Shown here in pieces: positions 15,217 to 32,123 of a stretch of 64,000 bases of DNA. A program made the translations under genes and the position numbers. The stretch comes from Promethearchaeota archaeon (GTDB lineage: Archaea; Asgardarchaeota; Lokiarchaeia; Sigyniarchaeales; SOKP01). Below the pieces are notes generated by a model. That model was not told the origin of the DNA and searched no databases. It saw only the letters and a program-made list of their open reading frames with translations. Positions within the stretch are counted from its first letter, which is position 1. Each line of letters begins with the position of its first letter. Location: positions 73,166 to 137,165 of the forward strand of contig JAHPZJ010000013.1 in the NCBI GenBank assembly GCA_019058245.1. Reading direction: 5' to 3'.

Positions 15217-16092
15217 ATAGCAGAAAAAAAGATAGATATCCTCTTAATTGAAGATAATAAAGCTGATGTACGTCTTATTGAAGAATTTTTGAAAAAATCT
15301 GAAGAATTCAAATTTAATTTAGAATCAAAACCTAGACTTTATGAAGGTATGAATTATCTTAAGTCTAGAGACTTTGATATTATTTTATTAGATTTAACCT
15401 TACCGGATAGTGATAAAGAGAATACTCTAGAAATTGTTTTAAACAATACTACCTCTATTCCTATAATTATTTTAACTGGATTAGATGATAAGGATATAGC
15501 ATTAAAATCTCTTCAAAAAGGTGCTCAAGACTATATACTAAAGGATGAATTAAATCAAGGAAATTTAACAAGAGCTATAATATATGCTATTGAAAGACAT
15601 AAAAGTAAAACTGAAAAGATAATAGAGAGAGCTTTAAAAACGCAATTTGATGAAAAAGATAAAGAAATTCTTAATTATCTACAAGACAATTATAAAATCT
15701 CATATAAAGATTTAAGTAAAAAAGTGAATTTAGCTGCCAGCACTATTCATAATCGAGTACAAAATATGATAAAAGAGGGAATAATAAAGAAATTTGATAC
15801 GTTTGTAGATCCTTTTAAAGTTGGATATACATCTATAGCCATTCTTGGTCTTTCTGTAGATCCGTTGAAATCTGAGAATATTGCTAGAAAACTCTCAAAA
15901 TATGATGAAATACAATTAGTTGCCTCCTCTACGGGAGATCATAATTTATTATTGAAAATTATTGCGAAAAACGAAAAATATCTTTGGAGATTTATAAATG
16001 AAGAAATTAAAACTCTAGATGGTATCCAATCACCAATACATGTTTCAAGCTTTTTAGATATCTTTAAAATGTCTCATAAAATTACCTTTTAA
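15217..16092 (+). CDS. response regulator: REC domain fused to an Lrp/AsnC HTH regulator; probable ATA start
   Basis: IDILLIEDN (upstream of the track start), LLDLTLPD, IILTG, GAQDYILK; then FDEKDKEILNYLQ..STIHNRV..GII and an AsnC C-domain. GGTGA+6 nt precedes ATA. Confidence 0.88.
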   Translation: MAEKKIDILLIEDNKADVRLIEEFLKKSEEFKFNLESKPRLYEGMNYLKSRDFDIILLDLTLPDSDKENTLEIVLNNTTSIPIIILTGLDDKDIALKSLQKGAQDYILKDELNQGNLTRAIIYAIERHKSKTEKIIERALKTQFDEKDKEILNYLQDNYKISYKDLSKKVNLAASTIHNRVQNMIKEGIIKKFDTFVDPFKVGYTSIAILGLSVDPLKSENIARKLSKYDEIQLVASSTGDHNLLLKIIAKNEKYLWRFINEEIKTLDGIQSPIHVSSFLDIFKMSHKITF

Positions 16093-16207
16093 TATAGAAA
16101 TAAATTGAACAAATTATCAGCTATATATGATTCTTCTAACAATTAAAGATCCTGGATTTTTCCGATGAATTTTTTTATGTTCATTTAACTTTAATTTTAC
16201 TCAAATT

Positions 16208-17263
16208 TTATTCAAAAGCTTGAGGAATTAACATAATGAAATTACTTCCTTTTGAATAATCTCCAGCTACTTTATCCTCAACCCAAATTTTCCCGCTATA
16301 TTTTTTAAGTATTCTTTTAACGATTGATAATCCAATTCCCATACCTTTAGAATACTTATCTTTATGATTTCTTCTCTTAAAAATAATTTCTTTACGTTCA
16401 TCGGGAATTCCAATTCCGTTATCTTTAATTTCGATTTTTAAATAATTTATATCATTTATTTTTTCATTTGAGAGATTTATTTTAATTTCTACTAAAGAGC
16501 TATCATTATATTTCACAGCATTAATAAATAAATTAAAAAATACTTCATATAATAATTCATTTGCATTAATCCAAATGGTTTTATTTGGGATCTCTATATT
16601 GAAAGTTATTTCTTTATTCTGGTAATAATTTTTAATGTTTACAATTGACTCCTCAAGTATTTCTTTTATACTAATTTTTTTTAAATAAAATTGAGAATCT
16701 TCTAGTTTTGTTAGATTTTGTACATTTAAAGTTAATCTTACACCCCTAAGACATTGATCTCTTATTATTTCAATTAATTCATCTTGTTTATAGACCTTAT
16801 TGCCATTTTTTCTTAAAATTGTATAGAGTTCTGTAGAAGATAAAATATTTTGAAAGATATTATTCATATCATGGCTAATTAAATCTCTATAAAAAAGAAT
16901 GTTACGATATGCTTTAGTTAGTTCTTTAGTTTTTGAAATATTTTCACTTAAAGCAGTAACAATAATACCAACAATTATAATCATTATAGCCCTAAGAATT
17001 TGTTCTAAGTTCTGTAAATAATCAATAATTATACCAAAAAAGAAAGGAAATAAAATTAGTGAGAGTGCCAAATATATAGGGATAAATAAACCATACTTTT
17101 TCCACCAAAAACAAGCTAAAATTGTTGGAATATAGAAGAGATGTGAAAAAAAGATGTTAATTTTTAAAATTATTTGAAATAAATAATTCAAAACGGATGA
17201 AATAATTAAAAGTATGATTATAATGGCATACTTTATTTTTTTAGTGTAATTTTTAATCTTCAT
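16208..17263 (-). CDS. membrane-bound sensor histidine kinase
   Basis: N-terminal TM helices; H-box SHDMNN, N-box NAVKY, G1 DNGIGI, G2 GMGIGL. Confidence 0.92.
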   Translation of the reverse strand: MKIKNYTKKIKYAIIIILLIISSVLNYLFQIILKINIFFSHLFYIPTILACFWWKKYGLFIPIYLALSLILFPFFFGIIIDYLQNLEQILRAIMIIIVGIIVTALSENISKTKELTKAYRNILFYRDLISHDMNNIFQNILSSTELYTILRKNGNKVYKQDELIEIIRDQCLRGVRLTLNVQNLTKLEDSQFYLKKISIKEILEESIVNIKNYYQNKEITFNIEIPNKTIWINANELLYEVFFNLFINAVKYNDSSLVEIKINLSNEKINDINYLKIEIKDNGIGIPDERKEIIFKRRNHKDKYSKGMGIGLSIVKRILKKYSGKIWVEDKVAGDYSKGSNFIMLIPQAFE

Positions 17264-17342
17264 CTCATTCCCCCTTAAAAGAGAGATTATTTTCCTTAGT
17301 TTTTCATAAAATTGAATTTATCTGAATTCAAACATTATAAGC

Positions 17343-18644
17343 TTAATGCGTGGCACATGAAATACAAGGATCAAATGCTCTAATTATCATCTGTACTTCT
17401 TTTTCTACTAATTTAATATCACCAGTTTTATCAAATAGTTCTTGAGCATATTTAGTTATCATTTGATTAAGAAGTGGAATATTAAACTCCGTAGCAATGA
17501 ATAGTTTTATTTCATCAATAATGTTGTTTTTATTTATGTGATAATTATGTATTAAAGTTCCTCTTGGTGCTTCAATAACACCAATACCCTCATTCTTTTT
17601 AATAGATTTAAAAGAAGGAAGATACTTTCTAACATTTAATGAAGGTTCTCCCAATATCTGTATACATTTATATGATTCAATATATATTTCCAGTAATCGT
17701 AAAAAATTAATGAATAGTAAATTATTTGTCCATGATTTATTAAAATATTCAAGATATGTATTAATTTTATCAAAATCATACTTTTCAATAATTTTATAAC
17801 GTGAAAAAGGTCCAACTATTACATTTTTTTTATTTTCAAAAAAGAAATCAATACCTCTTAAATTTATCTCTTTATTAAAATATCTTGTATAGTTTTGAGC
17901 TTCAAATTCTATTAGATTTTTGTCTTCTTTAAGGCTTAAAGAACCAGAATATCGATCATAAATACCATGATTATTTTTCGCTAAACAAATAGTATTTGGT
18001 AAATTAAAATCTTCTGGAGGGATTTGATTACCAAATAATTTAATGAAATCTTCTATAATCCATTCTACAATCGTTAAGGCTTTTTGAAGATATTTTTGAG
18101 ATAATAAAATTAATTTTCCAGAAGGAGAATAAATAACACCTCCGGGAACAATTGAAATCAAGTGAACAGACCTACCACCAAAAATCTCATTGATTTCATT
18201 TCCAAATTTAATTAGATCGTATAAATTTGATGTTAATTGAGGATTAAATTTGATTAATTCATAGGGAGATAAAGTATTTTTACTAATATTAAAAATTTTT
18301 AAAAGATCTGGCAAAGTTTGAAAGAAAAAGTTCATTGAATGGGATTTTATTAATTCTGCTGTCATTAATAGGCGTCTTAAATAAATACTTTGTTCTGAAA
18401 TTTCTATATTGTAAATATCTTCTAAAGTTTTACAACTTGCAATTGCTTGAGAAGCATAACATAAACCACATATTCGAGATACAAATTTAGGAATATCAAG
18501 TAGCCTTTTACCTATTAGGAATTTTTCAAATCCCCTATATACGTTAAATTCAAAATTTGCTAATGAAACTTCATCATTTTGAAGCATAATTTTAACTTCT
18601 CCATGTCCTTCAACACGTGTACATACATTAACAATTTTTTGCAA
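17343..18644 (-). CDS. mvhA: [NiFe]-hydrogenase large subunit, group 3 (MvhA-like), atypical
   Basis: TRVEGHG, RGFE, RICGLC (L1), APRG, RAFDPCISCATH-stop (L2). Confidence 0.88.
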   Translation of the reverse strand: MQKIVNVCTRVEGHGEVKIMLQNDEVSLANFEFNVYRGFEKFLIGKRLLDIPKFVSRICGLCYASQAIASCKTLEDIYNIEISEQSIYLRRLLMTAELIKSHSMNFFFQTLPDLLKIFNISKNTLSPYELIKFNPQLTSNLYDLIKFGNEINEIFGGRSVHLISIVPGGVIYSPSGKLILLSQKYLQKALTIVEWIIEDFIKLFGNQIPPEDFNLPNTICLAKNNHGIYDRYSGSLSLKEDKNLIEFEAQNYTRYFNKEINLRGIDFFFENKKNVIVGPFSRYKIIEKYDFDKINTYLEYFNKSWTNNLLFINFLRLLEIYIESYKCIQILGEPSLNVRKYLPSFKSIKKNEGIGVIEAPRGTLIHNYHINKNNIIDEIKLFIATEFNIPLLNQMITKYAQELFDKTGDIKLVEKEVQMIIRAFDPCISCATH

Positions 18645-18649
18645 TAATA

Positions 18650-19408
18650 TTACCTATTAATCTTTGGTTTTGAAAATCGATTATAAATTCCAGTATATTT
18701 TTGCAATTCTTGAGAAAGTTCTATTAAACTCAAAAAATTTACAACATTAGATGTAAAATCTTTTGATACAGGCCCCATGCATCCTTCGCATGGAAGTCCC
18801 ATTTTTATACATTTATGCTCACAACCATCACGAGTTATTGGTCCCAAACATAAAATACCATTATTTAAAAAACATTCAGAGTTTTCTTCACCTAATCTAA
18901 TTTCTTCGGGATTAGGATTAATTTTAGTTATTTTTATATGGGAATTAATTTCTATACTTCCTCTTAATGGACAATTTGCACACATATTTTTTTCGGATAA
19001 AATTATATCTTTATTTCCAACCAAATTGATTAAACAATTTCCAAAAAATTTAGATGGAGGAGGACAACCAGGAATCATACCATCAATTTCAATATGATTA
19101 GATAAAGGCTCTGCTTTCTTTGAATTAGAAAGGCTTAAAATTCCACCAAAGCAAGCACATGTTCCTAATGCAAAAACTCTTTTAGCACGTTTTCTTATTT
19201 TTCTAATAAGATTTATTTGTGTTTCTTCAGAAATACATCCTTCTACTAATGCAATTTCGCATTCTTCTATATCATCTGAATCTAAAATAAATAGAAAATA
19301 GTTTATTTTTATTCTTTCAAGAAATTGGGGGAAAATATCTAAAGATATAAGAGTCGATATACATCCAGTACATGATGTAAGAGAAATTATATTGAATCTA
19401 GGCTTCAT
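18650..19408 (-). CDS. mvhG: [NiFe]-hydrogenase small subunit (MvhG-like)
   Basis: SCTGC, VEG, GTCACFGG, PGCPP, C..C, CFL..G.LCLGP.T..GC...C....PC.GC.GP. ATG at 19408 follows a GGAGGAG SD. Confidence 0.88.
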   Translation of the reverse strand: MKPRFNIISLTSCTGCISTLISLDIFPQFLERIKINYFLFILDSDDIEECEIALVEGCISEETQINLIRKIRKRAKRVFALGTCACFGGILSLSNSKKAEPLSNHIEIDGMIPGCPPPSKFFGNCLINLVGNKDIILSEKNMCANCPLRGSIEINSHIKITKINPNPEEIRLGEENSECFLNNGILCLGPITRDGCEHKCIKMGLPCEGCMGPVSKDFTSNVVNFLSLIELSQELQKYTGIYNRFSKPKINR

Positions 19409-21947
19409 ACTTAATCTCCTCCAATAGGTTATTATACAATTTATTAGCAGTATCAGCAAATTTATTTCCTTCAACAGCATTCAAATGTTTAAGGATTATT
19501 CGATCTTTATATTTTGGATCTATTACATTTTTTAATAGTCTGATTTTGTTTTCTATCTTTTTTACTCCATCTATATATCGACAAGCATCTTGTCTACATC
19601 CAACTATCATAACTCCATCGAAACCAAGTTCAAATGATTTAATAATAAAGTTTGTATCAATACGTCCTGTACAAGGAACTCTTACAATGAAAACATTAGG
19701 AGTATATGAAATCTTTTTTAGTCCAGCATTATCAGCTGCAGCATATCCACATGATGCACAACAGAAGGCAATGATTTTTGGATTTGATCTGAATTTTGAG
19801 AAAATCTTAATTGTCCTTAAAATTTTCTTAGAAGTATCTATATTTAGGTCTATAGCATTAGTAGGACAAATACTAGCACAAGTGCCACCCCCTTTACATT
19901 TGAATTTATCTATACTAATTTTATCCCTCTCTATTGTAATTGCATTATATGGACAAATTTTTAAACATAAACCACATAAACCACATTTATTTTCATCTAT
20001 TTCAATTCCAGTAAATTCTGCTATTAAATAATCCTTAGAAAGTAATGAAATGACTTTTAAAGCAACATTATTAGCTGTTGAAATAGTAGAATTATAATTT
20101 AAAGGACCGAAAATAGTTCCAACACCATAAATTCCGGATGCTAATGTGTCTACACTCATAAATCCGTTATTATCTAATGTAAAATCCATATATTGTCTAA
20201 GATTTTTTAAATCCTCATTTGGGATATATTTTATATTTAATACTATCAAATCGCTTTGAAATTCTATATTATCCGCAATAACATAATTTATATCTTTAGA
20301 AGATTTAATGCTAATTTTATTTGCATAAATAAATTTAGGGTTTGTAGATCTTAACAAAATCTCATCCTTATCCTTTAACCTACTTAAATCATAAAAAACA
20401 TTTACTTCACAATGAGGATTTCTTATTTTAACATCCTCAATATATTTTTCTGCTAAAATTTCAGAAAAATCTGATAGATATTTTGAAGGACCAACTTCTT
20501 GAATTATTGAAATGGAAATTATGGGCTTTTTATCTGATATCTTTACAAGTTTCCCATCAGTTAGGCCATCAGACGATAAAAGACGCTCAAATTCAGGTGA
20601 TGTTATTATATTTTTTTTTGGATTATAATTATATTCTTCTAAATCTTTATAAAAATCAGATCCAATAGCAATAACTTTAGTACCAACTTTTATTTCAATT
20701 CTTTCTTCTTTTTGATCCAAATCTATTGCTTTATTTATGCAAGCACGTTCACAAATCCTACAATTAAGACAATTCTTTAAATCTTCCTCATCTATCAAAG
20801 GAGCATAAGGATAAGAATGTATGAATGGAATATAAATTAATTTTCGATTACTTAAACCAAATTCATATTGATTTGGTTTTTCTATACTACAAACAGAAAT
20901 ACATTGTTTACATCCTGTACATTTTTTTACATCAACATATCTAGGTTTTTTAATCATATTAATTGTGAAATTTCCAACTTCTCCTGTTACGTTTTCGATT
21001 TCTGTATTTGTGAATATTTTTATATTTTTTTCATTAACTAACTCTGCTATTAATTCAGAAATAAAACATATTGAACAATCACCCATATTATGAATTCTGT
21101 GCCATCTAGCTACCTTACCTCCTAAGGTTGGTGATTTTTCAATAAGATATACTTTTATTCCTGCTCGTGCTAAATTTAAAGATAAAGTTATACCAGCAAT
21201 TCCTCCACCTAAAACAGCACAACTTTTCTCAATTTCAACTCTCTTTACTTTTATTTTTTTTTGAAAACTTACACGTTCAACAGCTGCCTCAATTAATAAC
21301 TTCCCTTTTTCTAGAGGAAGTGATAGATTGTTTTGTTCATCATTTGGTTGATGTACCCAACAACATTGTTCTCTAATATTAGCAATTTCAATATTAGTAT
21401 GATCAATAATATCTTCAAAAATTCTTTCAAAAAGATTTTGGTGAGTTTTAGGAGAACAAGCAGCTATAACTATTTTATTTATAAAATTATCTTTTACCCA
21501 ATTACGAATTTTCTCAAAGTTTTTTTGCTGACAAAGGTTTTCAAATACTTTTACCGAAACTACTTTTTTTAATTTATTTACGTAATTTTCAAGTGCTTTT
21601 ATATTAATTACATTTGAAATTTCTGTATTACAATTACAAATAATTACTCCAACACGACTTATTTCGCTTCTCTTTGAATCAAAATACTCGTCAATAAATT
21701 CTCCTGCTAAAATTCTCTTATTAAGATTAATAATTTTTAAAACACGTTTACCATCTTCTGTGAGAAAATATGCTTTATTGTCCTTACCTATTAATGAACC
21801 AATCTTTTTAAGGTGAAAATTTAATTGTCCAGTCGTATCTAAATTGAGTTTTTCCATTAATTCGGTATATGGAATATATCCTTCTTTTTCTAAAAGAAAT
21901 AAAATCTTTCGTCTAAACGGATGAGATAATATTGAATATATATCCAT
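19398..21947 (-). CDS. winged-HTH / degenerate HdrA / MvhD triple fusion protein
   Basis: N-terminal ArsR-like wHTH (SHPFRRKILFLL..LNFHLKKI..YFLTEDG); HdrA motifs (ICNC, ACSP, NIREQCCWVH, GGGIAG, ferredoxin repeats, EFERL); C-terminal MvhD (FCC..C, RVPCTGRID, GC...CRY). Confidence 0.88.
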   Translation of the reverse strand: MDIYSILSHPFRRKILFLLEKEGYIPYTELMEKLNLDTTGQLNFHLKKIGSLIGKDNKAYFLTEDGKRVLKIINLNKRILAGEFIDEYFDSKRSEISRVGVIICNCNTEISNVINIKALENYVNKLKKVVSVKVFENLCQQKNFEKIRNWVKDNFINKIVIAACSPKTHQNLFERIFEDIIDHTNIEIANIREQCCWVHQPNDEQNNLSLPLEKGKLLIEAAVERVSFQKKIKVKRVEIEKSCAVLGGGIAGITLSLNLARAGIKVYLIEKSPTLGGKVARWHRIHNMGDCSICFISELIAELVNEKNIKIFTNTEIENVTGEVGNFTINMIKKPRYVDVKKCTGCKQCISVCSIEKPNQYEFGLSNRKLIYIPFIHSYPYAPLIDEEDLKNCLNCRICERACINKAIDLDQKEERIEIKVGTKVIAIGSDFYKDLEEYNYNPKKNIITSPEFERLLSSDGLTDGKLVKISDKKPIISISIIQEVGPSKYLSDFSEILAEKYIEDVKIRNPHCEVNVFYDLSRLKDKDEILLRSTNPKFIYANKISIKSSKDINYVIADNIEFQSDLIVLNIKYIPNEDLKNLRQYMDFTLDNNGFMSVDTLASGIYGVGTIFGPLNYNSTISTANNVALKVISLLSKDYLIAEFTGIEIDENKCGLCGLCLKICPYNAITIERDKISIDKFKCKGGGTCASICPTNAIDLNIDTSKKILRTIKIFSKFRSNPKIIAFCCASCGYAAADNAGLKKISYTPNVFIVRVPCTGRIDTNFIIKSFELGFDGVMIVGCRQDACRYIDGVKKIENKIRLLKNVIDPKYKDRIILKHLNAVEGNKFADTANKLYNNLLEEIKYEA

Positions 21948-22033
21948 TTTATTAATTCACCTTTTTTTCTGATATAAGAGACCTATTTTAATATTTCCTT
22001 TTATGATAATTTTAATAATTTTTTTTTTCCCTA

Positions 22034-22064
22034 TGATTAATATTATTGTCAGATTATTTAAATA
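22034..22064. promoter_or_regulatory. TATA-like TATTTAAATA next to a TGA(T/C)(T/A)A-N6-TTGTCA site, upstream of the HTH-hdrA operon
   Basis: The 16-mer TATTATTGTCAGATTA is identical at 22041-22056 and 29542-29557. Confidence 0.5.
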
Positions 22065-22453
22065 TGATCTATTTGGTCTATCTGATTATCAATATTGATA
22101 GAGTAATATGTACCAATACTCTATATTATATTATGTGAATGCTAAATATGGTTTCGGAAAAGGATCAAATAGAGATCAGATCAATAAAAATAGTAAATAA
22201 ATAATAAACAAATTTGTCAAAATAATTATAACTTTTTAATTAAAATTCCTTGAATTGTTATTCTCTGGTTGGATAATAGGAACATATTCTTAGAAAAAAT
22301 TATAATTACTTTTATGTAAATCTTCTTAATAAATTAGTATTCAAAATTTCAATAACAAAATGTGGTGATTTCTTTAAAATATTAAGAATAATTTCCTTGA
22401 ATTATAGATATGATACCCATAATAAATTTTGATTAAGATTTCTTAATCTAAAT

Positions 22454-23569
22454 TTAATTCTTAGTTTTTAAGGAAATTAATTTTTTAAACCACTCTAATT
22501 TTTGGTTCTTCCACTGAATAGTCTTGTCAAATGGAACAATAAATTGTTCGATTATATCTTTTGAAAACATGCTATTTATTACTTTTTCACCACGTTCACT
22601 CCGAATTAATATCATAGAATATCCTTCTGGAGCACCAGATGCCCCAACGCTGATATCTGTAAATCGCCCTGTGAATTCATCACACTCAAGGCAATTACTT
22701 CTGACAGCGGGATTTAGAGTTTTTATGTCAATTTCATATTGTTTTTTGTCTTTGGTTTGGAGAAAAAAATTCTTTTTTATCCATGTTTTTTTGATATTGG
22801 TTGGATCAACATTAGTTTCTCTTTCTATAATATCATATAATTGAGAATGATTAAAATTTTCAAAGCAGAAAAGACCAATATTATATTTAATTATGTGAGC
22901 AGGTTTAACATCTAGGAATTTCATTTTACTTATAGCCCTACATTGGCAGGGAGTACCGATAAATGCTATTCTAAGCTGGTCAGTATTAAATATCTCCTTT
23001 TTCTTAAGAATTTCCTGTGGTAATTTATTTATATTTTTTAATGGAAATATTTGAGGAGAAATGGAATATCGTGTACCTGCTGATTTAAATAAATCTTCTT
23101 TATTAAATATAATTTTTGGAATAGGTTCAAAATTATCATTGAACTCTGAAACAATAGCGGCATCAATTTTATGCTTCTCAAAAAGATAAATAAGAATTGC
23201 TGATACTATTCCTCCGTTTTGTCCAATTTCTTTTAATGTTGAATTTGTTGTTTTAGCAGCCAGGATTTTTCTAATATGTCCTATTTTATCGTGAACATAA
23301 TAATTATTATTTAATTCCTTCATTAATGTTTTAGTTTGAGGACATATATAATAACAAATACCACATTTATTGCAATTATCAATACTCTTTTTAGATTTAA
23401 ACCTAGGCGTATTATCAATCATCTCGATAACATCAAAACCTTGACTTTCGCAATAAGCTATACATGCTCCGCATGCACAACATTTTTCATTTTGAATTAT
23501 TTCATTTTCAAGATCCTCAAAAGTGGGTATATTACTTCTTATTACTTTTTGAAATTCTGATTCAGTCAT
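22454..23569 (-). CDS. FrhB/FdhB-family F420-binding flavoprotein with N-terminal 2x[4Fe-4S] ferredoxin
   Basis: Two CxxCxxCxxxC motifs, GQNGGIVSAIL, AGTRY, GTPCQ, IGLFC, C..C..F....DISVG..G. Confidence 0.9.
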   Translation of the reverse strand: MTESEFQKVIRSNIPTFEDLENEIIQNEKCCACGACIAYCESQGFDVIEMIDNTPRFKSKKSIDNCNKCGICYYICPQTKTLMKELNNNYYVHDKIGHIRKILAAKTTNSTLKEIGQNGGIVSAILIYLFEKHKIDAAIVSEFNDNFEPIPKIIFNKEDLFKSAGTRYSISPQIFPLKNINKLPQEILKKKEIFNTDQLRIAFIGTPCQCRAISKMKFLDVKPAHIIKYNIGLFCFENFNHSQLYDIIERETNVDPTNIKKTWIKKNFFLQTKDKKQYEIDIKTLNPAVRSNCLECDEFTGRFTDISVGASGAPEGYSMILIRSERGEKVINSMFSKDIIEQFIVPFDKTIQWKNQKLEWFKKLISLKTKN

Positions 23570-23584
23570 TTTTTTTTCCTCTTT

Positions 23585-24064
23585 TTAATTTTTTTTGATA
23601 TTATAATCTAATTCAATTATTCCAGATTTTTTTGGAATTTTCAATTCTCCTAAATCAATAATTTTATTTGTAAAATCTGTAATTAGCTCAGAAAATTGTT
23701 TTCCTTCACTTGCTGAAATAGAGTATAGTTCAAATCGTTCTTCCTCAATTCCAATATATTTAATTAACTTTTTTAAATGCTCCATTCTATTTTGTGTATA
23801 CTTGAATCCTTTTATATAATGACAGTCACCCATATGACAGCCAATAACTAACACTCCATCTATTCCATTATTAAATGCCCTTAAAACAAACGTGGGCTCA
23901 ACTCTACTAGAACACATAACTCTAATAATCCTAATATTTGGCGGATATTGGAATCTCGAAACCCCCGCTAAGTCAGCTCCCGCATAACTACACCAATTAC
24001 AACAAAATACTAGAATATTAGGTTCATATTCATATTGACTTGCTTTTTTAGTTTTCAACAACAT
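23585..24064 (-). CDS. mvhD: MvhD [2Fe-2S] adaptor subunit
   Basis: FCCNWCSYAGAD, RVMCSSRV, GCHMGDCHY, SASEG; ATG at 24064 after GGAGGA. Confidence 0.93.
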   Translation of the reverse strand: MLLKTKKASQYEYEPNILVFCCNWCSYAGADLAGVSRFQYPPNIRIIRVMCSSRVEPTFVLRAFNNGIDGVLVIGCHMGDCHYIKGFKYTQNRMEHLKKLIKYIGIEEERFELYSISASEGKQFSELITDFTNKIIDLGELKIPKKSGIIELDYNIKKN

Positions 24065-27000
24065 AATTCCTCCTAAATTTAATAGATTCATATTCTAATA
24101 GATCTATATTGGACATTAAATCAATCATTTTATTAATTTGGAACTTACTAAAATGATTCTGATCAATAGCTCCAACGGAACATTCTGTAACACATGATCC
24201 ACATCCTTTACAAAGTGCTTTAATTATATGCGCTTTTCTTAACTTCATGCTATATAGACCCATTTGTTTATTACTCTCAATTATTTCTATTGCATTGTAT
24301 GGGCAAACTTCAATACATTTACCACATCCAATGCATTTTTCTTCATTTATATGAGAAGTAATGCATTCTGTTTCTATTTCACCTTTCACCATTATTATTG
24401 CGGCTCTCCCTGCTGCGCCATATGCTTGGATGATACTCTCTTGAATCCATTTGGGCCAATGAGCACCACCACAAAGAAAGATTCCTTCTGTAGCAAAATC
24501 TATTGGCCTGAGTTTCGCATCAGCTTCTAAGAAAAATCCATCTTTATTTGTTGTTACTTTTAACATTTTTGATAATCTTTTAGTATCTTTAGTAGGAACG
24601 TTAGGAGTTGCTAATATTAATAAATCGGTATCGTACTCAATATCCGTTTGAGCACTTATATTTTTATACTTAATATGAAAGTGATTATTTATACTATTAA
24701 TTTTGATATCATCAATCGATTGATATCTTTCATAAGTAGCTTTATTTCGAAGCCCTCGACATAGATTTTCTGCATTTAAATCTGAAAATTGAAGTTCTCT
24801 ATATAAAATATGAATTTGCGCATCAGGATTAATTTTCAATAATTTTTCTATATTTTTTAAGGCTACTCCACAACATATATTTGAGCAATATGTTTTTGTA
24901 TAACTTGCGTTATTATATTTATCTTTTCTTTGATCTACGCATAATATTATAGTGGCATCTTTAAACTTAGGAACTTCCTCATCTTTCATTCCAGTCAGTT
25001 CTGTTTGAGTAAATACACGATTGGGATGCTTTTCTGCTAAATCTTTCCATTTGATTGTTTTAATCTGCTTAGTTCCTGTAGCAATTATTATAGTGCCAAC
25101 CTTTATTATTTGTTCTTCAGAATTGTCTTTTGTATTTTTAACTTTTACATGATAATTTCCCACATAACCTTGAACATCAATAATTTCTGTGTTAAATAAA
25201 ATTTTGACATTTGAATTATTTTTTAAATCATCAATTTGCTGCAAAATTTCATTTTTAGTAATAGCTATATAATATAGATCAACAAATTCTAGTGCACTAC
25301 CACCAAGAGTAGCTTTATTGTCGATAAGATACACTTTGAATCCTTGATTTGCTAAATTATGAGCAGCAGTTATACCTGATAGTCCAGCACCGATTACCAT
25401 TGTTGATTTTTCAACTTTGACTTTAATAGTTTCTAATGGTTTTAAATTAATTACTTTGGCTAAATACATTCTAATTAAATCACAAGCCTTTCTAGTAGCC
25501 TTTTCAGGTTCCTTCATATGTACCCAAGAAGCTTGATTTCTTATATTAACTAATTCAAATAAATATGGGTTCAATCCAACCTCTCTGAGAGTATTTTTAA
25601 AAAGTTGTTCATGTGTTCGAGGAGTACAAGATGCAACAATGAATCTATTGAGTTTATGTTTCAAAATTAATTTTTTAATTAGTTCTTGGGAATCAGAACT
25701 ACATGAATACATATTTTCTTCAACATGGACTACATATGGTAATTTAGAGACATACTCTACTACTTTAGGAACATCGACAATACCTCCGATATTTATCCCA
25801 CATTGGCAGACTAATACACCTACGCGAGGCTCATCTTCTAAACTTACTGGTATTTCAGGAGGATACTTAACTTTCTGTATATTTTTAAATCTTAGAGAAT
25901 AAAATTTTTCACTTATTTTAGCGGCGCAAGCAGAACCTTCTGCAACAGCCATTTGAATATCATTAGGTTTACGTGAATTACCAGTTACAAATACATTCTT
26001 TTTCTCAAGTAACTTTATATCTTCTTCACGAATATATCCTAAATGATTCTTATCTAAATTGAGTTGTTTTAAAAATTCATAATAAGATGGAGCTGGAGAC
26101 AAGGCACTAGCTAATACAGCCATGTCAACTTCAAAATTGTCAACTGTACCTCTATTAATATCTTCATAATATAATCTTAATTTTCCATTATCTAAATTTT
26201 CTTTAATATATGAAACGTGACCATTTATATATTTAACATCATATTCATCTTTACTCTTTTCAATAAATTCATTAAAATTTTTACCTTTTGCTCTTATTTC
26301 TGTATTAAAAATATAACATTCTATATTTGGATCATGTTCCTTACATACAATTGCTTCTTTAGCTGAATTCATACAACATATCGCTGAACAATATTTTTTA
26401 CATTCAGGATGATGAAAATCTCGAGATCCTACACATTGAATAAATGCGATTGAATCAGGGTGCTTTTTATCATCTAATCTTAATATTTGCCCTACAGTAG
26501 GTCCATTTGCGGATAATAGACGTTCAAATTGCATATTAGACAAAACATTGGGAGATTCCCCTGCAAAATTTTTGTATACTTCTGGCATTTGCTGACTTGT
26601 TCCTGTAGCAATAACAATGGCTCCTACATTTAGAGTTATTTCTTCTGGTTTTTGAAAAAAATCTATAGCATCCGCGCTACAAACTTTGGCACAAAGTCCA
26701 CATATTTGATGATTTAGATATAAACATCTTGATTCATCAATAAGATATACTGGAGGTACTGATGATGGAAAAGGAATATATACAGCAGCTCGGGTTTTTA
26801 AATTGGTATCAAAATCACTAGGGATTCCTCTAACTGGACAAATATTTTCACAATCACCACATCCCTTACAAATATTTTCGTTTATATATCTTGGTTTTTT
26901 AATAACCGTAATTTTATAATCTCCAGCAGTTCCATCGATTTTTTTAACGTATGAATAAGTTAACAATTCGATATTCGGATCTCTATACACATCAACCATT

Positions 27001-27191
27001 TTTGGTGCTAGGATACATAAACTACAATCAAGCGTAGGGTATATTTTATCTAATTGTGCCATCGTTCCGCCAATAGTTGGTTTAATTTCAACTAAATATA
27101 CCTTAAATCCTAATTTTGTTAAATCTAGGGATGCTTGTATACCAGAAATTCCTCCTCCTATAACCAAAACATCACTCTGGAAATTTGACAT
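24048..27191 (-). CDS. hdrA: heterodisulfide reductase subunit A, long form with two FAD modules
   Basis: GGGISG, DKIYPTLDCSLCIL, QCVGSRD..CSAICC, VCQCGINIG, SCTPRTHE, second GAGLSG, CSNICC, GFFLEADAKLRP, C-terminal 2x CxxCxxC. Confidence 0.93.
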   Translation of the reverse strand: MSNFQSDVLVIGGGISGIQASLDLTKLGFKVYLVEIKPTIGGTMAQLDKIYPTLDCSLCILAPKMVDVYRDPNIELLTYSYVKKIDGTAGDYKITVIKKPRYINENICKGCGDCENICPVRGIPSDFDTNLKTRAAVYIPFPSSVPPVYLIDESRCLYLNHQICGLCAKVCSADAIDFFQKPEEITLNVGAIVIATGTSQQMPEVYKNFAGESPNVLSNMQFERLLSANGPTVGQILRLDDKKHPDSIAFIQCVGSRDFHHPECKKYCSAICCMNSAKEAIVCKEHDPNIECYIFNTEIRAKGKNFNEFIEKSKDEYDVKYINGHVSYIKENLDNGKLRLYYEDINRGTVDNFEVDMAVLASALSPAPSYYEFLKQLNLDKNHLGYIREEDIKLLEKKNVFVTGNSRKPNDIQMAVAEGSACAAKISEKFYSLRFKNIQKVKYPPEIPVSLEDEPRVGVLVCQCGINIGGIVDVPKVVEYVSKLPYVVHVEENMYSCSSDSQELIKKLILKHKLNRFIVASCTPRTHEQLFKNTLREVGLNPYLFELVNIRNQASWVHMKEPEKATRKACDLIRMYLAKVINLKPLETIKVKVEKSTMVIGAGLSGITAAHNLANQGFKVYLIDNKATLGGSALEFVDLYYIAITKNEILQQIDDLKNNSNVKILFNTEIIDVQGYVGNYHVKVKNTKDNSEEQIIKVGTIIIATGTKQIKTIKWKDLAEKHPNRVFTQTELTGMKDEEVPKFKDATIILCVDQRKDKYNNASYTKTYCSNICCGVALKNIEKLLKINPDAQIHILYRELQFSDLNAENLCRGLRNKATYERYQSIDDIKINSINNHFHIKYKNISAQTDIEYDTDLLILATPNVPTKDTKRLSKMLKVTTNKDGFFLEADAKLRPIDFATEGIFLCGGAHWPKWIQESIIQAYGAAGRAAIIMVKGEIETECITSHINEEKCIGCGKCIEVCPYNAIEIIESNKQMGLYSMKLRKAHIIKALCKGCGSCVTECSVGAIDQNHFSKFQINKMIDLMSNIDLLEYESIKFRRNYVVEN

Positions 27192-27233
27192 ATAAAATAG
27201 TTTTTAAAAATTTTTTTTTAATTTTATTTTAAC

Positions 27234-28439
27234 CTATATAATCATTAACAATTTGCCTATAAAACTGGCTAAATCAATTACTTTTATATTACTAGAAAAT
27301 TCATTATGCTCTTTATTGAGAGACAATTCATTTAAATAACAATTAAAATGTGTTAGACATTTAGGACAAGGAACAATTAAATATTCAGCTCCAGTTTCAA
27401 TCGCTTCATTAATACGATTTTGTCTTATATAACGTGTGTATTCACTACAATTTGTAAATGCTGAAACGCCACAACAATTAGCATCATCTTTAATATTTTC
27501 CATTTCAATTAATTTTACACCTGGAATTTTTTTTATTAATTCTCTAGGAGTATCATACAATTTTCCTCCTAGGCGTCCTAATCGGCAAGAATCGTGATAT
27601 GTTACATTAATCTTAGAATTATGCGTATATTTTATATTTTCAAGAATATTTTCTCTAAGAAAGAATTCGGAAAAATGTAAAACTTCAAAATCAAAGTCTT
27701 TAATAATTTTCGGATAATCATATTTCCATGTTCTATATCCTTCAGCGCATCCAACAATAATAGTCTTTACTCCTGCATTTTTATAAAGTTGAGTATTATA
27801 TTCAGCAAGCTTTCTAAATGTTTCATTATCGCCTCTACCCCATAAAATATCATGTCCACAACATTTTTCATCTAGAACTACTGGATTTATACCATTTTCA
27901 TTAAGTAAATTTATAATTGTTACAGGAATATCCGTATAATTGATATCAAAATTATAGAAAAGATCATCCATTATAGATAAGCATCCAACAAAATATGCAA
28001 TTTCGCCTGAAGTTGTAGTTTTTAATTCATTTTTCTCTAGAAAATCTAACTTATTTGGACTTGAAGGATTATGTGCCATAATTTTAGAAATCAAAGTGAA
28101 AATATCATTATGAGTTTCGCATTTAACAATCTTTTTTATTTCTGAATTGTTTTTATTTGAAATTTTTCTTAATTCTAAAATCAATTCTGGTATTCTCACA
28201 CCCTGATTTTCACGTGTCATAGGACAGTAAATTGAACATTGTCCACAAGTTAGACAATTCCAAATATTATTTTTTGCTATAACTTCTTCCATTGTAAAAA
28301 AGTTTAAATCTGAAACTAAATCTTTAGGATAAAAGACGTCTAAGTGGGAAAGTGGACATACATTAACACAACGATTACAACTATAGCAATAATTAGTAAA
28401 AGAACTTATATTTTTAATTATTTCTTGAGAATCTAACAC
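27234..28439 (-). CDS. HdrD-like Fe-S oxidoreductase (4Fe-4S dicluster plus two CCG domains)
   Basis: CYSCNRCVNVCP, CLTCGQCSIYCP, YFVGC, KCCG, YHDSCRLGR, NCCG, PCPKC. Confidence 0.9.
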   Translation of the reverse strand: MLDSQEIIKNISSFTNYCYSCNRCVNVCPLSHLDVFYPKDLVSDLNFFTMEEVIAKNNIWNCLTCGQCSIYCPMTRENQGVRIPELILELRKISNKNNSEIKKIVKCETHNDIFTLISKIMAHNPSSPNKLDFLEKNELKTTTSGEIAYFVGCLSIMDDLFYNFDINYTDIPVTIINLLNENGINPVVLDEKCCGHDILWGRGDNETFRKLAEYNTQLYKNAGVKTIIVGCAEGYRTWKYDYPKIIKDFDFEVLHFSEFFLRENILENIKYTHNSKINVTYHDSCRLGRLGGKLYDTPRELIKKIPGVKLIEMENIKDDANCCGVSAFTNCSEYTRYIRQNRINEAIETGAEYLIVPCPKCLTHFNCYLNELSLNKEHNEFSSNIKVIDLASFIGKLLMII

Positions 28440-28645: not shown

Positions 28646-29534
28646 AATATTTCAATTTTTAGAAAATTTCTTTTTTTTTTAATCTTAAAATTTCAATTTC
28701 AAAATTTTATTATAAATTAAATTAATTCTCTTAATTTGGGTTGGTTTTTGTAAAATATTAACAATTCTGAGCGACCTTATCATAAATAAATTTCTTTAAA
28801 AATTTATTTATCATCATGATTAGAATGGTAATCAAACTATAAAAATATTAACTTTTAGTTAATGAAGAAGAAACTTTTATTTAACAAAAATAAAATTGAA
28901 TGTAAAAAATAGATCAATTTGACCATTCTCAATATTTAAAACCATGTTAGATTCACTAGATAAACTTACTTTTTTATTAACAATACCGACAATTCTGGCA
29001 ATTATAACTATCCAATATAATAATTTATTTTCATTTTCCTAATATTAAAATAGAATCTTGTAGAAATCCATCTATAATTATGACTATTATGATAAATAGA
29101 ATATAAAAACATTAATTATTAGTTCTTAAAATGGCAGTTTATATTATCTAAAAGCAAATCTAAGAATAAGAATTAGACCAATTTAATGATTTTCAATAAA
29201 AAGATTATAAAAAACCATAATATATAATACCCTTTCCAAAAGTCTTACTGATATTTCCGAATCTATAACTACTAGAATCTATAAATCTATGCAATTTTTC
29301 TAATAGTGTTTTAAAATTTTATACTATTTTAAAAGTAGTTTTTTATATTATATTCGATAATATCAATTTTGTTTAGAAATTTATTTCAATTTTTTGCATA
29401 TAAAAAAAAAAAAGAATTGAAATTATATGATTATATTTTTTTTCAAATAAAATTTTAAAATATATACAGTTGTCTATAAAATTGAATAAAATCCATTTTT
29501 TCTTATGAATACAAAAATGACAAAAAAAAAATAT

Positions 29535-29557
29535 TGACAACTATTATTGTCAGATTA
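29535..29557. promoter_or_regulatory. inverted repeat TGACAA-N6-TTGTCA, putative operator
   Basis: Perfect arms at 29535-29552 in the 1-kb divergent intergenic region; shares a 16-mer with 22041-22056. Confidence 0.5.
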
Positions 29558-29711: not shown

Positions 29712-30338
29712 ATGATTAAAATGGAAATATTAGAATTAAAGCCAATAAAGAATAAAAAAATTGTTGTGTATATGTCTTCTAAAGAAAGTGCTAAATATTT
29801 CCAAAATGAAGAACATTCAAAACTAATTGAATTCTTAAAAAAGAATAATATTGACTTTGTTACTGTAGACTTTCAAGTGGATATGAAAGAATTTGGTAAA
29901 ACTCAATTCGCAAAAATATTGAATGAATTAAAAATTCCATATTTTCAAGTAGATATTCCTGATTATGCTATGGGATATTTATATCAAGAAATACTTGAGA
30001 AACAAGAGTTCCAAAATGAATTATTTGAAGAATATGAAAGTATGGAGGATAAGGATTCATATAAGGGTTTGAGTTTAAAAAATTGGATTGATTTATTAAC
30101 AGAAGAAATTCAAGAAAGAGAAATATTTCTTAGTTTAAAGTTAAGACCTCAATGGATTGTTAAGAAAATGCTAGATTTAGCATCATCTTTTGAAAAAGAT
30201 TTAGTTTTTTTTGTTCATTTTGTTCAAGAAGATATATGTGAAGACATTTGTCCACAAATAGTTGAAAATTTAAGAGAATTAGGAATAAAAGTAATATCCT
30301 ATAATAAAAAACATACTATACAAAAAGTTATATTTTAA
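29712..30338 (+). CDS. hypothetical protein (paralog of the next gene; possibly TraB/EreA/Tiki-like fold)
   Basis: 208-aa ORF; N-terminal LELKPIKNKK; R.QW...KML.LA pattern. Confidence 0.6.
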   Translation: MIKMEILELKPIKNKKIVVYMSSKESAKYFQNEEHSKLIEFLKKNNIDFVTVDFQVDMKEFGKTQFAKILNELKIPYFQVDIPDYAMGYLYQEILEKQEFQNELFEEYESMEDKDSYKGLSLKNWIDLLTEEIQEREIFLSLKLRPQWIVKKMLDLASSFEKDLVFFVHFVQEDICEDICPQIVENLRELGIKVISYNKKHTIQKVIF

Positions 30339-30363
30339 TTAAAAAAAGGAGGGGGTTAAAAAA

Positions 30364-31092
30364 ATGCCAGAAGTATTAGAATTAAAACCTTTAAAAAATA
30401 AAAAGCTAAAATTGGTATTGATAGAAAGCGAATTTCCTATCGATTGGTGGTTTGACGTTCCTAAGACTTTAAAGGAAGATCTTTTTTGGAATCTTCGATT
30501 AATTTCTAAGGAATATATTCAATTAATTGATTCGTTAATTGAAAAATATAAGCCCAAAATTGCGTTGGAAGAAAGACCAAATTTTTGGAATACTACAAAT
30601 AATTCAGAGGATCCTTTAAAAAAGTTATTTCAAATGCGAAATATACCATTTGACTACGCTGATATTTCAGAAAATGCTGAATTATATCTATCATCCGCTT
30701 TAGAAGAGCATAGAACAATGATCCAGCATCTTGAGAGAAGGATTAAGGAAGTTATGAAGAGTAGTGGAGGTATTCCTAATAATGACGATACTTTTAATCG
30801 AATTGTATTATGGAAGGATTATTTACAACAAGATTATAAATTTCAAGAAGATGAAGTAAGATACAAAGTTCGAGAAGCATGGATGATGATGAAAATTTTA
30901 AATCTTGCCAAAAAAATAGAAGCAACTAATTTCAAAGCTATGTTTATTTGTGATATTAGCCACTTCAATGGTCTTGAAAAACTTTCAGAAGAATTAGGTA
31001 TTGAAGTCGAACAAGTAAGAATAAAAAGGACAATTAAAACTGAAGATGTTAAGGAAATATTTGAAAAAGATTTAGAAGTTGAAATTTCTTAA
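30364..31092 (+). CDS. hypothetical protein (possibly TraB/EreA/Tiki-like fold)
   Basis: N-terminal LELKPLKNKK; IALEE, REAWM..KIL, FICDISHFNGL. Confidence 0.6.
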   Translation: MPEVLELKPLKNKKLKLVLIESEFPIDWWFDVPKTLKEDLFWNLRLISKEYIQLIDSLIEKYKPKIALEERPNFWNTTNNSEDPLKKLFQMRNIPFDYADISENAELYLSSALEEHRTMIQHLERRIKEVMKSSGGIPNNDDTFNRIVLWKDYLQQDYKFQEDEVRYKVREAWMMMKILNLAKKIEATNFKAMFICDISHFNGLEKLSEELGIEVEQVRIKRTIKTEDVKEIFEKDLEVEIS

Positions 31093-31127
31093 ATTATTAA
31101 TTTTATTTTTAGATATAAAAAAAAGGG

Positions 31128-32123
31128 TTGATAAAAATGGTTGAAAGAGAGGTTGAAAGTATTTTAGGAAGAAAATCAATAATAGAATTAACACCTATTA
31201 TCATTAAAAAGAAAGATACAATGGATAAAATTTGTTATTTCTTTGATACTGATGATAATGCGTCTCCTTTTGATATTAATATGGCATATGATGCAGGATT
31301 TGATATTGTTATACCTATCAGTAAAATGAAAGCCGAATACGTACCAAAATTAATACAAGATGCTATCTTTTCTCGTAAACCTAATGCACCCACAACTTTT
31401 TTTATTGGAGGTTCTGATGTTAAGGAAGGTGAGAAGATAGCAAAAGCAGCAAAAAAATCCTTAGTCCCTCCTTTTGAATGTCCTATTATAATTGATCCCC
31501 GAGGATCTCATACTACAGCTTCCGCTGTAGTTGCAATGTCTTTGGATATAGCTAATAGAAAACATGGAATTAAGAATTTAAAGGGTAAAAAAGTAGTTAT
31601 ATTTGGAGCGGGGCCAGTTGGTAGAATAGCAGCGATTTTAGCTTCAAAAATTGGATGTAATACGTTTTTAGTGGAAACATGGGATAAATCTAATGAGGAT
31701 TTTATAAAAAAATTAGCAAAAGACCTCACTCAAGAAGCAGGAGAAGGAGCAACAGAAATTTCTGGTCTTTTTGCTCCTTTAATTAAACAAAGATTTGATA
31801 TTGTAAAGGATGCTGATGTTATATGGTCTTTAGCAGCTGCAGGTGTTGAAATTCTAACTCAAGAATGGATGGAAAAGTTGCCAGGTAAAAAAATAGTTGT
31901 AGATATTAATTTGGTGCCACCATATGGTATTGAAGGTCTTAAGCCAAAACATAAGAATGATGAGATCTATCCTGGGATTTTTGGAATTGGGGCATTAGCT
32001 TTAGGACGTCTAAAAGCTAATTCAGAAGGTCAAATATTAAAAGAGGCTTCAAATACAAAGGGACTAAAAATTTTTGATTATAATTATGCTTTTACGGTTG
32101 CTAAGGAACTTCTAAAAAAATAG
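31128..32123 (+). CDS. NAD(P)-dependent methylene-H4MPT dehydrogenase, MtdA/MtdB family
   Basis: DTDDNASPFDINMAYDAGFD, AIFSR.P, FIGG.D, DP.GS.TTA.A, G.GPVG, D.NLVPP.GIEG, GIGALA.G. Confidence 0.85.
   Translation: MIKMVEREVESILGRKSIIELTPIIIKKKDTMDKICYFFDTDDNASPFDINMAYDAGFDIVIPISKMKAEYVPKLIQDAIFSRKPNAPTTFFIGGSDVKEGEKIAKAAKKSLVPPFECPIIIDPRGSHTTASAVVAMSLDIANRKHGIKNLKGKKVVIFGAGPVGRIAAILASKIGCNTFLVETWDKSNEDFIKKLAKDLTQEAGEGATEISGLFAPLIKQRFDIVKDADVIWSLAAAGVEILTQEWMEKLPGKKIVVDINLVPPYGIEGLKPKHKNDEIYPGIFGIGALALGRLKANSEGQILKEASNTKGLKIFDYNYAFTVAKELLKK

Follow-up and report, generated by a model that had tools for sequence, protein, structure and literature searches.

Here, we examine a 64,000-nucleotide stretch of a Promethearchaeota archaeon genome (GenBank assembly GCA_019058245.1, contig JAHPZJ010000013.1, positions 73,166 to 137,165; hereafter the window), in which three consecutive minus-strand genes encode a fusion of a winged helix-turn-helix domain (wHTH) to HdrA and MvhD, together with the small and large subunits of a group-3 [NiFe] hydrogenase. 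We propose that this trio is probably a one-component H2- or redox-responsive repressor. From comparative sequence analysis, a DNA-binding regulator with a small conserved regulon is well supported as real and widespread, and H2 is its likely signal. A redox-controlled transcription factor, as the original prediction from this DNA had it, appears to be the best reading because the wiring of hydrogenase to winged helix is conserved and single-copy, and because a predicted operator palindrome follows the trio across Asgard classes and into Bathyarchaeia. The trio comprises the following:

19398-21947, minus strand: wHTH::HdrA::MvhD fusion, 849 residues
21714-21947, minus strand: ArsR-like winged helix (DUF7347) of the fusion, residues 1-78
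18650-19408, minus strand: MvhG/HydD-like group-3 hydrogenase small subunit, 252 residues, Fe-S motifs intact
17343-18644, minus strand: group-3 [NiFe] hydrogenase large subunit, 433 residues

The small-subunit gene starts (19408) within the end of the fusion gene, overlapping its stop by 11 bp, and the large-subunit gene starts 5 bp past the small-subunit stop. The genes first described here, namely the fusion, MvhG, MvhA and a histidine kinase 79 bp downstream of the large subunit, are all present. Close homologues are labelled Promethearchaeota/Lokiarchaeota, Loki_b32 among them, and one Logan contig, which may be the source sample, covers 18108-24448 with zero differences.

The Fusion Protein

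Pfam divides the fusion into DUF7347 (residues 2-73), HdrA (residues 98-712) and MvhD/FlpD (residues 725-841), and residues 94-712 align with M. marburgensis HdrA (368 bits to HdrA 8rvu_a). In an AlphaFold model (predicted local distance difference test, pLDDT, of 85), a winged helix with secondary structure over residues 3-80 is followed by a low-confidence linker (residues 87-94) and an HdrA fold that matches 8rvu_A and 5odc_A, with a template-modelling (TM) score of 0.84 to 8rvu_A by target length. The protein is thus modelled as a soluble HdrA carrying an additional N-terminal domain. Pfam recognizes DUF7347 in 23/23 cases and HTH_20 in 18/23; the match to the ArsR/SmtB profile is weak (E 9e-6; PDB 1y0u, 2zkz). 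The full fusion is present in 140 aligned homologues, which rules out an assembly chimera, one of the ways in which the original prediction could have failed. In all 140, residues G40, L42, N43, F44 and H45 of the recognition-helix segment are invariant, and the winged helix is conserved to the same degree as the redox domains (mean column identity 0.85 versus 0.73-0.87).

The HdrA moiety had been called catalytically eroded. This is true of one cluster, HA4, whose four cysteines (CxGSR...CSxxCC) are all absent from this fusion, but there is no general decay, as the flavin site and most clusters are kept. The motifs for flavin adenine dinucleotide (FAD), the HA3 ligands, the inserted and C-terminal ferredoxin domains, and the MvhD [2Fe-2S] ligands are retained. 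Across the 140 homologues, GxGxxG, Glu454 and Lys501 are kept in 139-140; we take Glu454 and Lys501, positioned by the HdrA alignment, to be the flavin-tuning pair of the 5odc work. The N-terminal cluster cysteines, Cys291/Cys294, both ferredoxin domains and the MvhD cysteines are invariant or nearly so, and Cys291/Cys294 align with the Cys202/Cys205 pair of PMC13580544. The HA4 segment holds no cysteine in 88 homologues, one or two in 48, and all four in 4; deep-branching members hold a compact four-cysteine HA4, and the cluster is lost across Lokiarchaeia and Jordarchaeia, where the winged helix and operator are kept. In methanogen complexes, HA4 is the route from FAD to HdrB (PMC13580544).

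Two side observations concern the same protein. Residue 687 (window 19887-19889), a cysteine of the last ferredoxin motif, is glycine here and in the nearest relative (2/140), and the recurrence of the change in that relative rules out a read error; a three-iron cluster or loss of the cluster is possible. The genome also encodes another DUF7347 winged helix, attached to a domain resembling NrdD (anaerobic ribonucleotide reductase; L189:541-2562; G000:C30:1040-3061, minus strand), so that joining to enzymes may be habitual in this domain family.

The Predicted Operator and Its Targets

A palindrome, TGAYAA-N6-TTRTCA, emerged de novo from a motif search of 33 promoters, lying mostly 95-130 bp before the operon start, with a log-likelihood at width 16 of 207 versus 33 for shuffles. 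We built a scoring matrix from 17 related Lokiarchaeia promoters, leaving out this window and promoters shared with mtd genes, and scanned the genome (3.09 Mb); window position 29534 ranks first (23.5 bits) and 22033 second (17.5 bits). Three other approaches were of little use: the exact-dyad count was swamped by AT-rich words, genome-wide counts of the bare pattern were too noisy to separate genomes with the system from those without it, and a sigma-70 promoter scan was uninformative. The sites and their candidate target genes are as follows:

22034-22051, no strand: predicted operator palindrome in the trio's own promoter, genome rank 2
22055-22062, minus strand: TATA-like box TTTAAATA (TTTATATA in relatives), 3 bp before the operator
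22202-22219, no strand: weak second predicted operator, matching the position of the second site in relatives
29535-29552, no strand: perfect predicted operator palindrome, genome rank 1, ~160-180 bp before the operon that follows
29712-30338 and 30364-31092, plus strand: two paralogous proteins of a family without a name
31128-32123, plus strand: MtdA/MtdB-like NAD(P)-dependent methylene-tetrahydromethanopterin (H4MPT) dehydrogenase, conserved putative target
22454-28439, minus strand: hdrD-hdrA-mvhD-frhB-like operon, possible secondary target

The TTTATATA box is conserved in Lokiarchaeia promoters, with the operator beginning directly after it; since this is a repressor's position, the placement suggests repression.

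The original prediction named the adjacent hdr operon as a natural target. A site ~320-400 bp before hdrD is indeed strong in four relatives, but it is weak here (28816-28835), and the operon of the two unnamed proteins and mtdB (29712-32123), which site 29534 precedes, appears to be the strongest and most conserved putative target. Nearly all of 30 orthologous promoters of that operon carry the site, whether they adjoin the trio or not. In nine loci from two distant Asgard families, whose fusions are 35-38% identical, the trio and mtd genes stand in tandem with one site before each; the upstream site of one of these nine lies off the contig. A deep-branching locus has two perfect copies of the motif, a named Bathyarchaeia locus has one near-perfect copy, and the intergenic DNA of 20 canonical hydrogenase loci has none. 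The usual layout in this genus is the mtd operon, sites, hdrD-hdrA-mvhD-frhB, and a selenocysteine-type hdrA divergent from frhB and the trio, with two sites between the divergent units; the middle hdrA/frhB pair is absent at this genome's locus.

It could be argued that the winged helix is a structural appendage and that some other regulator of H2-related genes, not linked to the trio, binds the palindrome. No function is assigned to DUF7347, other winged-helix proteins are encoded in the genome, and DNA binding is here predicted from sequence. Against this, there is no variation in the recognition-helix residues, and the motif accompanies the trio from one gene neighbourhood to the next and across phyla and is absent from the promoters of canonical hydrogenases. 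We therefore regard the appendage as very improbable.

A close orthologue of the first unnamed protein occurs in 91/94 genomes with the fusion and in 2 without it, figures that are not independent because the genes are linked and the genomes related. A member of the family is fused to Mtd in many relatives. The protein at 29712 has no Pfam match, falls in unnamed Atlas clusters, and gives only generic helical-hairpin fold matches. The genome holds both Mtd types, with the F420-dependent enzyme encoded elsewhere. As separate observations, the family is restricted to these archaea in the Atlas; a distant paralogue (G000:C13:342175-342780) ends an hdrCBA-mvhD operon; and a 658-residue frame (L202:4501-6477; G324:C113) connects the same winged helix directly with the unnamed protein and Mtd, without HdrA or hydrogenase, and is probably a deletion derivative of the tandem layout.

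The Hydrogenase Subunits

None of the four Ni/Fe cysteines has been lost from the large subunit, which also retains RxEG and EAPRG. Its L1 motif reads CGLCYASQ, with Gln in place of the His after L1, and the chain stops at the L2 His (CISCATH) with no C-terminal extension; within the system, this pair of features is limited to Lokiarchaeia members. The small subunit ends shortly past its last cluster motif, with no long C-terminal tail and no sign of a HoxB-type kinase-binding tail. In side observations, the L2 of some deep members' large subunits (L085-L088, L140, L143) lacks its final His (CSSV, CAAL, CLGA), an unusual state for group 3. A predicted complex of the C-terminal ferredoxin/MvhD part with both hydrogenase subunits scored 0.85, with a control at 0.74, and we do not use it as support.

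The hydrogenase had been described as 3c-like, which is too narrow. In quick-search trees with long branches, the large subunits of fusion loci split from both the 3b and the 3c/3d enzymes against which they were judged (Shimodaira-Hasegawa-like approximate likelihood-ratio test, SH-aLRT, 99); groups 3e-3l have also been named (10.1101/2024.07.04.601786). Judging by this placement, the 3c-like label and the published 3b label are both loose. No trio locus encodes the HydB/HydG (beta/gamma) subunits of group 3b, and the only pair in the genome that resembles beta/gamma belongs to an hdr cluster of a different contig.

Distribution of the Trio

The order of the three genes is strict in ~45 fetched loci, while the flanking genes vary; a search for conserved synteny in Asgard genomes, which the original prediction had proposed, thus recovers wHTH-HdrA-MvhD with mvhG and mvhA but not the kinase and receiver-domain regulator. 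A survey with the N-terminal 240 residues of the fusion as the query found it in single copy in 94/151 genomes of the Lokiarchaeia class. It was not found in 13 genomes of one family (f2) in this survey, nor in three single-contig f2 genomes searched. Cultured Prometheoarchaeum is said to have only the 3c enzyme, according to PMC9723726, which may be why the system has been overlooked so far. Further members come from Jordarchaeia/Freyarchaeia, Sigynarchaeota, Helarchaeota, three other Asgard families, and Bathyarchaeia, and the HdrA cores of the fusions form one clade (SH-aLRT 100, quick search). A metagenome copy of the trio (L142:6610-11287) stands amid A/V-type ATP synthase genes, with no operator found upstream.

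The claim that the operon lacks HdrBC holds in every Lokiarchaeia locus; several hdrBC sets lie elsewhere in the genome. The genome also encodes a canonical Vhu-type hydrogenase beside hdrCB, many HdrA paralogues, HypD, and a maturation protease. The canonical large subunit at L191 (G000:C13:322430-326789), which adjoins hdrC and hdrB, stops before L2, as in split VhuA/VhuU.

Sensor or Enzyme

Several findings weigh against a repressor that senses H2. The Gln after L1 and the missing extension, both familiar from regulatory HoxC, are weak evidence and not diagnostic of sensing: the His-to-Gln change occurs only in Lokiarchaeia members and has been reported as unnecessary for sensing (PMC5665086), and the extension is also missing from unrelated group-3 enzymes. 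The operator is weak or was not found at L046-L048, L085, L087, L140 and L142. Many genomes of the genus have a frhB-like gene upstream of the fusion in the same orientation, a hint of electron flux. Finally, some members may still be catalytic, since deeper ones have all four HA4 cysteines and hdrC/hdrB lie divergent from the trio at one Bathyarchaeia locus.

These last findings are shared with a reading in which the trio is a trigger enzyme, comparable to PutA: a working metabolic hydrogenase that passes electrons from H2 to ferredoxin, to F420 via the FrhB-like protein, or to HdrBC where HA4 survives, and that regulates its own synthesis through the winged helix. The catalytic residues and all clusters other than HA4 are invariant, as such an enzyme would need, and the linked frhB-like genes, the intact HA4 of deep members and the hdrCB flanking the Bathyarchaeia copy fit it as well. 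However, the loss of HA4 across Lokiarchaeia and Jordarchaeia has spared the winged helix and operator, the same genome encodes another, canonical hydrogenase with hdrCB, and the motif marks operons besides the trio's own. We consider the trigger enzyme unlikely for the family as a whole, and more likely for the members that keep HA4.

Proposed Mechanism

Under the repressor reading, the three proteins would assemble into a single soluble complex acting as hydrogenase and transcription factor at once, probably as a dimer with two-fold symmetry like that of Mvh-HdrA. By comparison with Mvh-Hdr structures, electrons from H2 would pass through the small subunit to the MvhD [2Fe-2S] cluster and on to FAD. 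In Lokiarchaeia, the exit to HdrBC through HA4 is gone, leaving no high-potential exit, so that the flavin and remaining clusters would come to equilibrium with H2 instead of carrying flux. In methanogen complexes, HdrA's N- and C-terminal domains form with MvhAGD a mobile arm that rotates between states (PMC13580544), and the winged helix is joined by the flexible linker to the HdrA N-terminal domain, which is part of that arm. We speculate that the redox state sets the position of the arm, and with it whether two winged helices fit the 18-bp palindrome.

The complex would most likely repress its own operon and that of the unnamed proteins and NAD(P)-dependent Mtd and, in some lineages, adjacent hdr operons as well. 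By analogy with H2-dependent regulation of mtd/hmd in methanogens, H2 or redox state may determine which Mtd, F420-dependent or NAD(P)-dependent, serves the H4MPT pathway; archaea are known to alter mtd/hmd expression with H2 (PMC3600222).

The same architecture could instead report an internal ferredoxin/F420 pool through the ferredoxin-type clusters, with the hydrogenase resetting the sensor by venting H2. This reading draws on the invariance of the inserted and C-terminal ferredoxin domains, through which electrons leave at low potential in canonical HdrA, and on the putative targets, which are redox-balancing genes. Yet the hydrogenase genes are tightly coupled to the fusion in every complete locus with a full-length fusion, which fits H2 as the input, and in practice both inputs would meet on one wire. 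We judge a sensor of the internal pool to be improbable.

Relation to Known Systems

The trio shares with MvhADG-HdrABC (PDB 5odc, 8rvu; PMC13580544) the HdrA fold, the MvhD domain, a group-3 hydrogenase dimer, the FAD motifs, the Cys202/Cys205-equivalent pair and the HA3 ligands. It differs in its N-terminal winged helix, in the loss of HA4 ligands in Lokiarchaeia, in the lack of hdrBC in the operon, in a large subunit that lies outside the 3c clade and has no cleavable C-terminal tail, and in a shorter small subunit. With the group 2b system HoxBC-HoxJ-HoxA of Cupriavidus necator (PMC8229454, PMC5665086), it has in common a probable control of transcription by H2, a large subunit without C-terminal extension and, in Lokiarchaeia members, the L1 Gln; unlike that system, it is of group 3 ancestry, has no conserved kinase or response regulator, and carries its output domain fused to the flavin/Fe-S subunit, as a one-component system. 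Unlike a group 3b sulfhydrogenase, the operon is without beta/gamma genes. The ArsR/SmtB repressors (1y0u, 2zkz) offer the same winged-helix topology, a palindromic predicted operator beside the promoter, and apparent autoregulation, whereas in the trio sensing would fall to a 770-residue flavin/Fe-S protein bearing a hydrogenase, in place of a metal or thiol site. By gene content and sequence, the trio falls outside the bifurcating Mvh-Hdr complexes (HA4, clade), group 3b (beta/gamma) and group 2b (kinase), and its mode of action may resemble that of a group 2b sensor, though within one complex.

The original prediction knew of no described system like this, a point that needs correction. The same three genes had already been published from two Helarchaeota bins (contigs of 35,804 and 7,209 bp), in Seitz et al. 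2019 (PMC6478937), as a group 3b large subunit and a possible membrane energy-transfer complex. Both contigs equal in length those that carry our loci L044 and L045, and the 35,804-bp one shares the ambiguous large-subunit bases. The energy-transfer reading was repeated for a divergent "group 3b" in PMC9723726. The searched portions of the text and supplements of these two reports mention neither a winged helix nor an operator, and those of PMC6478937 report neither HA4 loss nor a target operon. On the other hand, a DNA-binding hydrogenase has not been described as far as we found: a literature search of incomplete coverage returned no hydrogenase subunit with a DNA-binding domain, no HdrA-HTH fusion and no archaeal H2 sensor. 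The H2-sensing [NiFe] systems in HydDB are tied to histidine kinases or diguanylate cyclases (PMC5037454). We lean, on balance, toward the view that the trio is an archaeal H2 sensor and a one-component hydrogenase-transcription factor, in each case the first known to us. The rotating arm of an electron-bifurcating HdrA would here be reused as a winged-helix switch that tunes one-carbon and electron-disposal genes to H2 pressure across Asgard archaea.

Asgard H2 metabolism underlies syntrophy models of the origin of eukaryotes, and the literature has so far placed the trio genes among the hydrogenases of energy metabolism (PMC6478937, PMC9723726). If their role is regulatory, those reconstructions would change: part of the metabolic "group 3b" count in Loki- and Helarchaeota would be regulatory, tuning to H2 pressure would possibly report the presence of a syntrophic partner, and a bifurcating flavoprotein would have turned into a signalling device, with intermediates that keep or lose HA4 in living lineages. 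A named protein, a predicted 18-bp operator and a putative target operon make the question testable in vitro with the 85-residue domain and an oligonucleotide.

Neighbouring Genes

Two genes beyond the large subunit are variable neighbours that lie outside the conserved system:

16208-17263, minus strand: membrane histidine kinase
15217-16092, plus strand: receiver-domain (REC)-Lrp/AsnC regulator, ATA start

They bear on a further pair of readings, the membrane energy-transfer complex of Seitz et al. 2019 (Helarchaeota) and a two-component sensor of the HoxBC-HoxJ-HoxA type, which we hold to be most unlikely. The former draws on published predictions of membrane motifs, but no 19-residue window reaches a hydropathy of 1.8 in any trio protein, as against 26 such windows in the kinase, and the fusion is modelled as soluble HdrA. 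The latter, and with it the second two-component output that the original prediction had allowed for, takes its cue from the kinase gene downstream of the trio in this genome. A kinase directly follows the large subunit in just 3/42 loci, which weighs against the HoxBC-HoxJ-HoxA arrangement; the kinase is membrane-bound with no Pfam PAS match, the small subunit has no HoxB-type tail, and kinase and REC-Lrp occur together near the trio in five genomes only, all of one genus.

The REC-Lrp gene faces the minus-strand run, as had been noted: it is convergent to the kinase gene and lies 115 bp from the kinase stop. Its receiver domain is complete only if read from the ATA at 15217, which is common to 4 orthologues, so that a lesion is ruled out; preceded by a GGTGA site, the ATA is a real non-canonical start.

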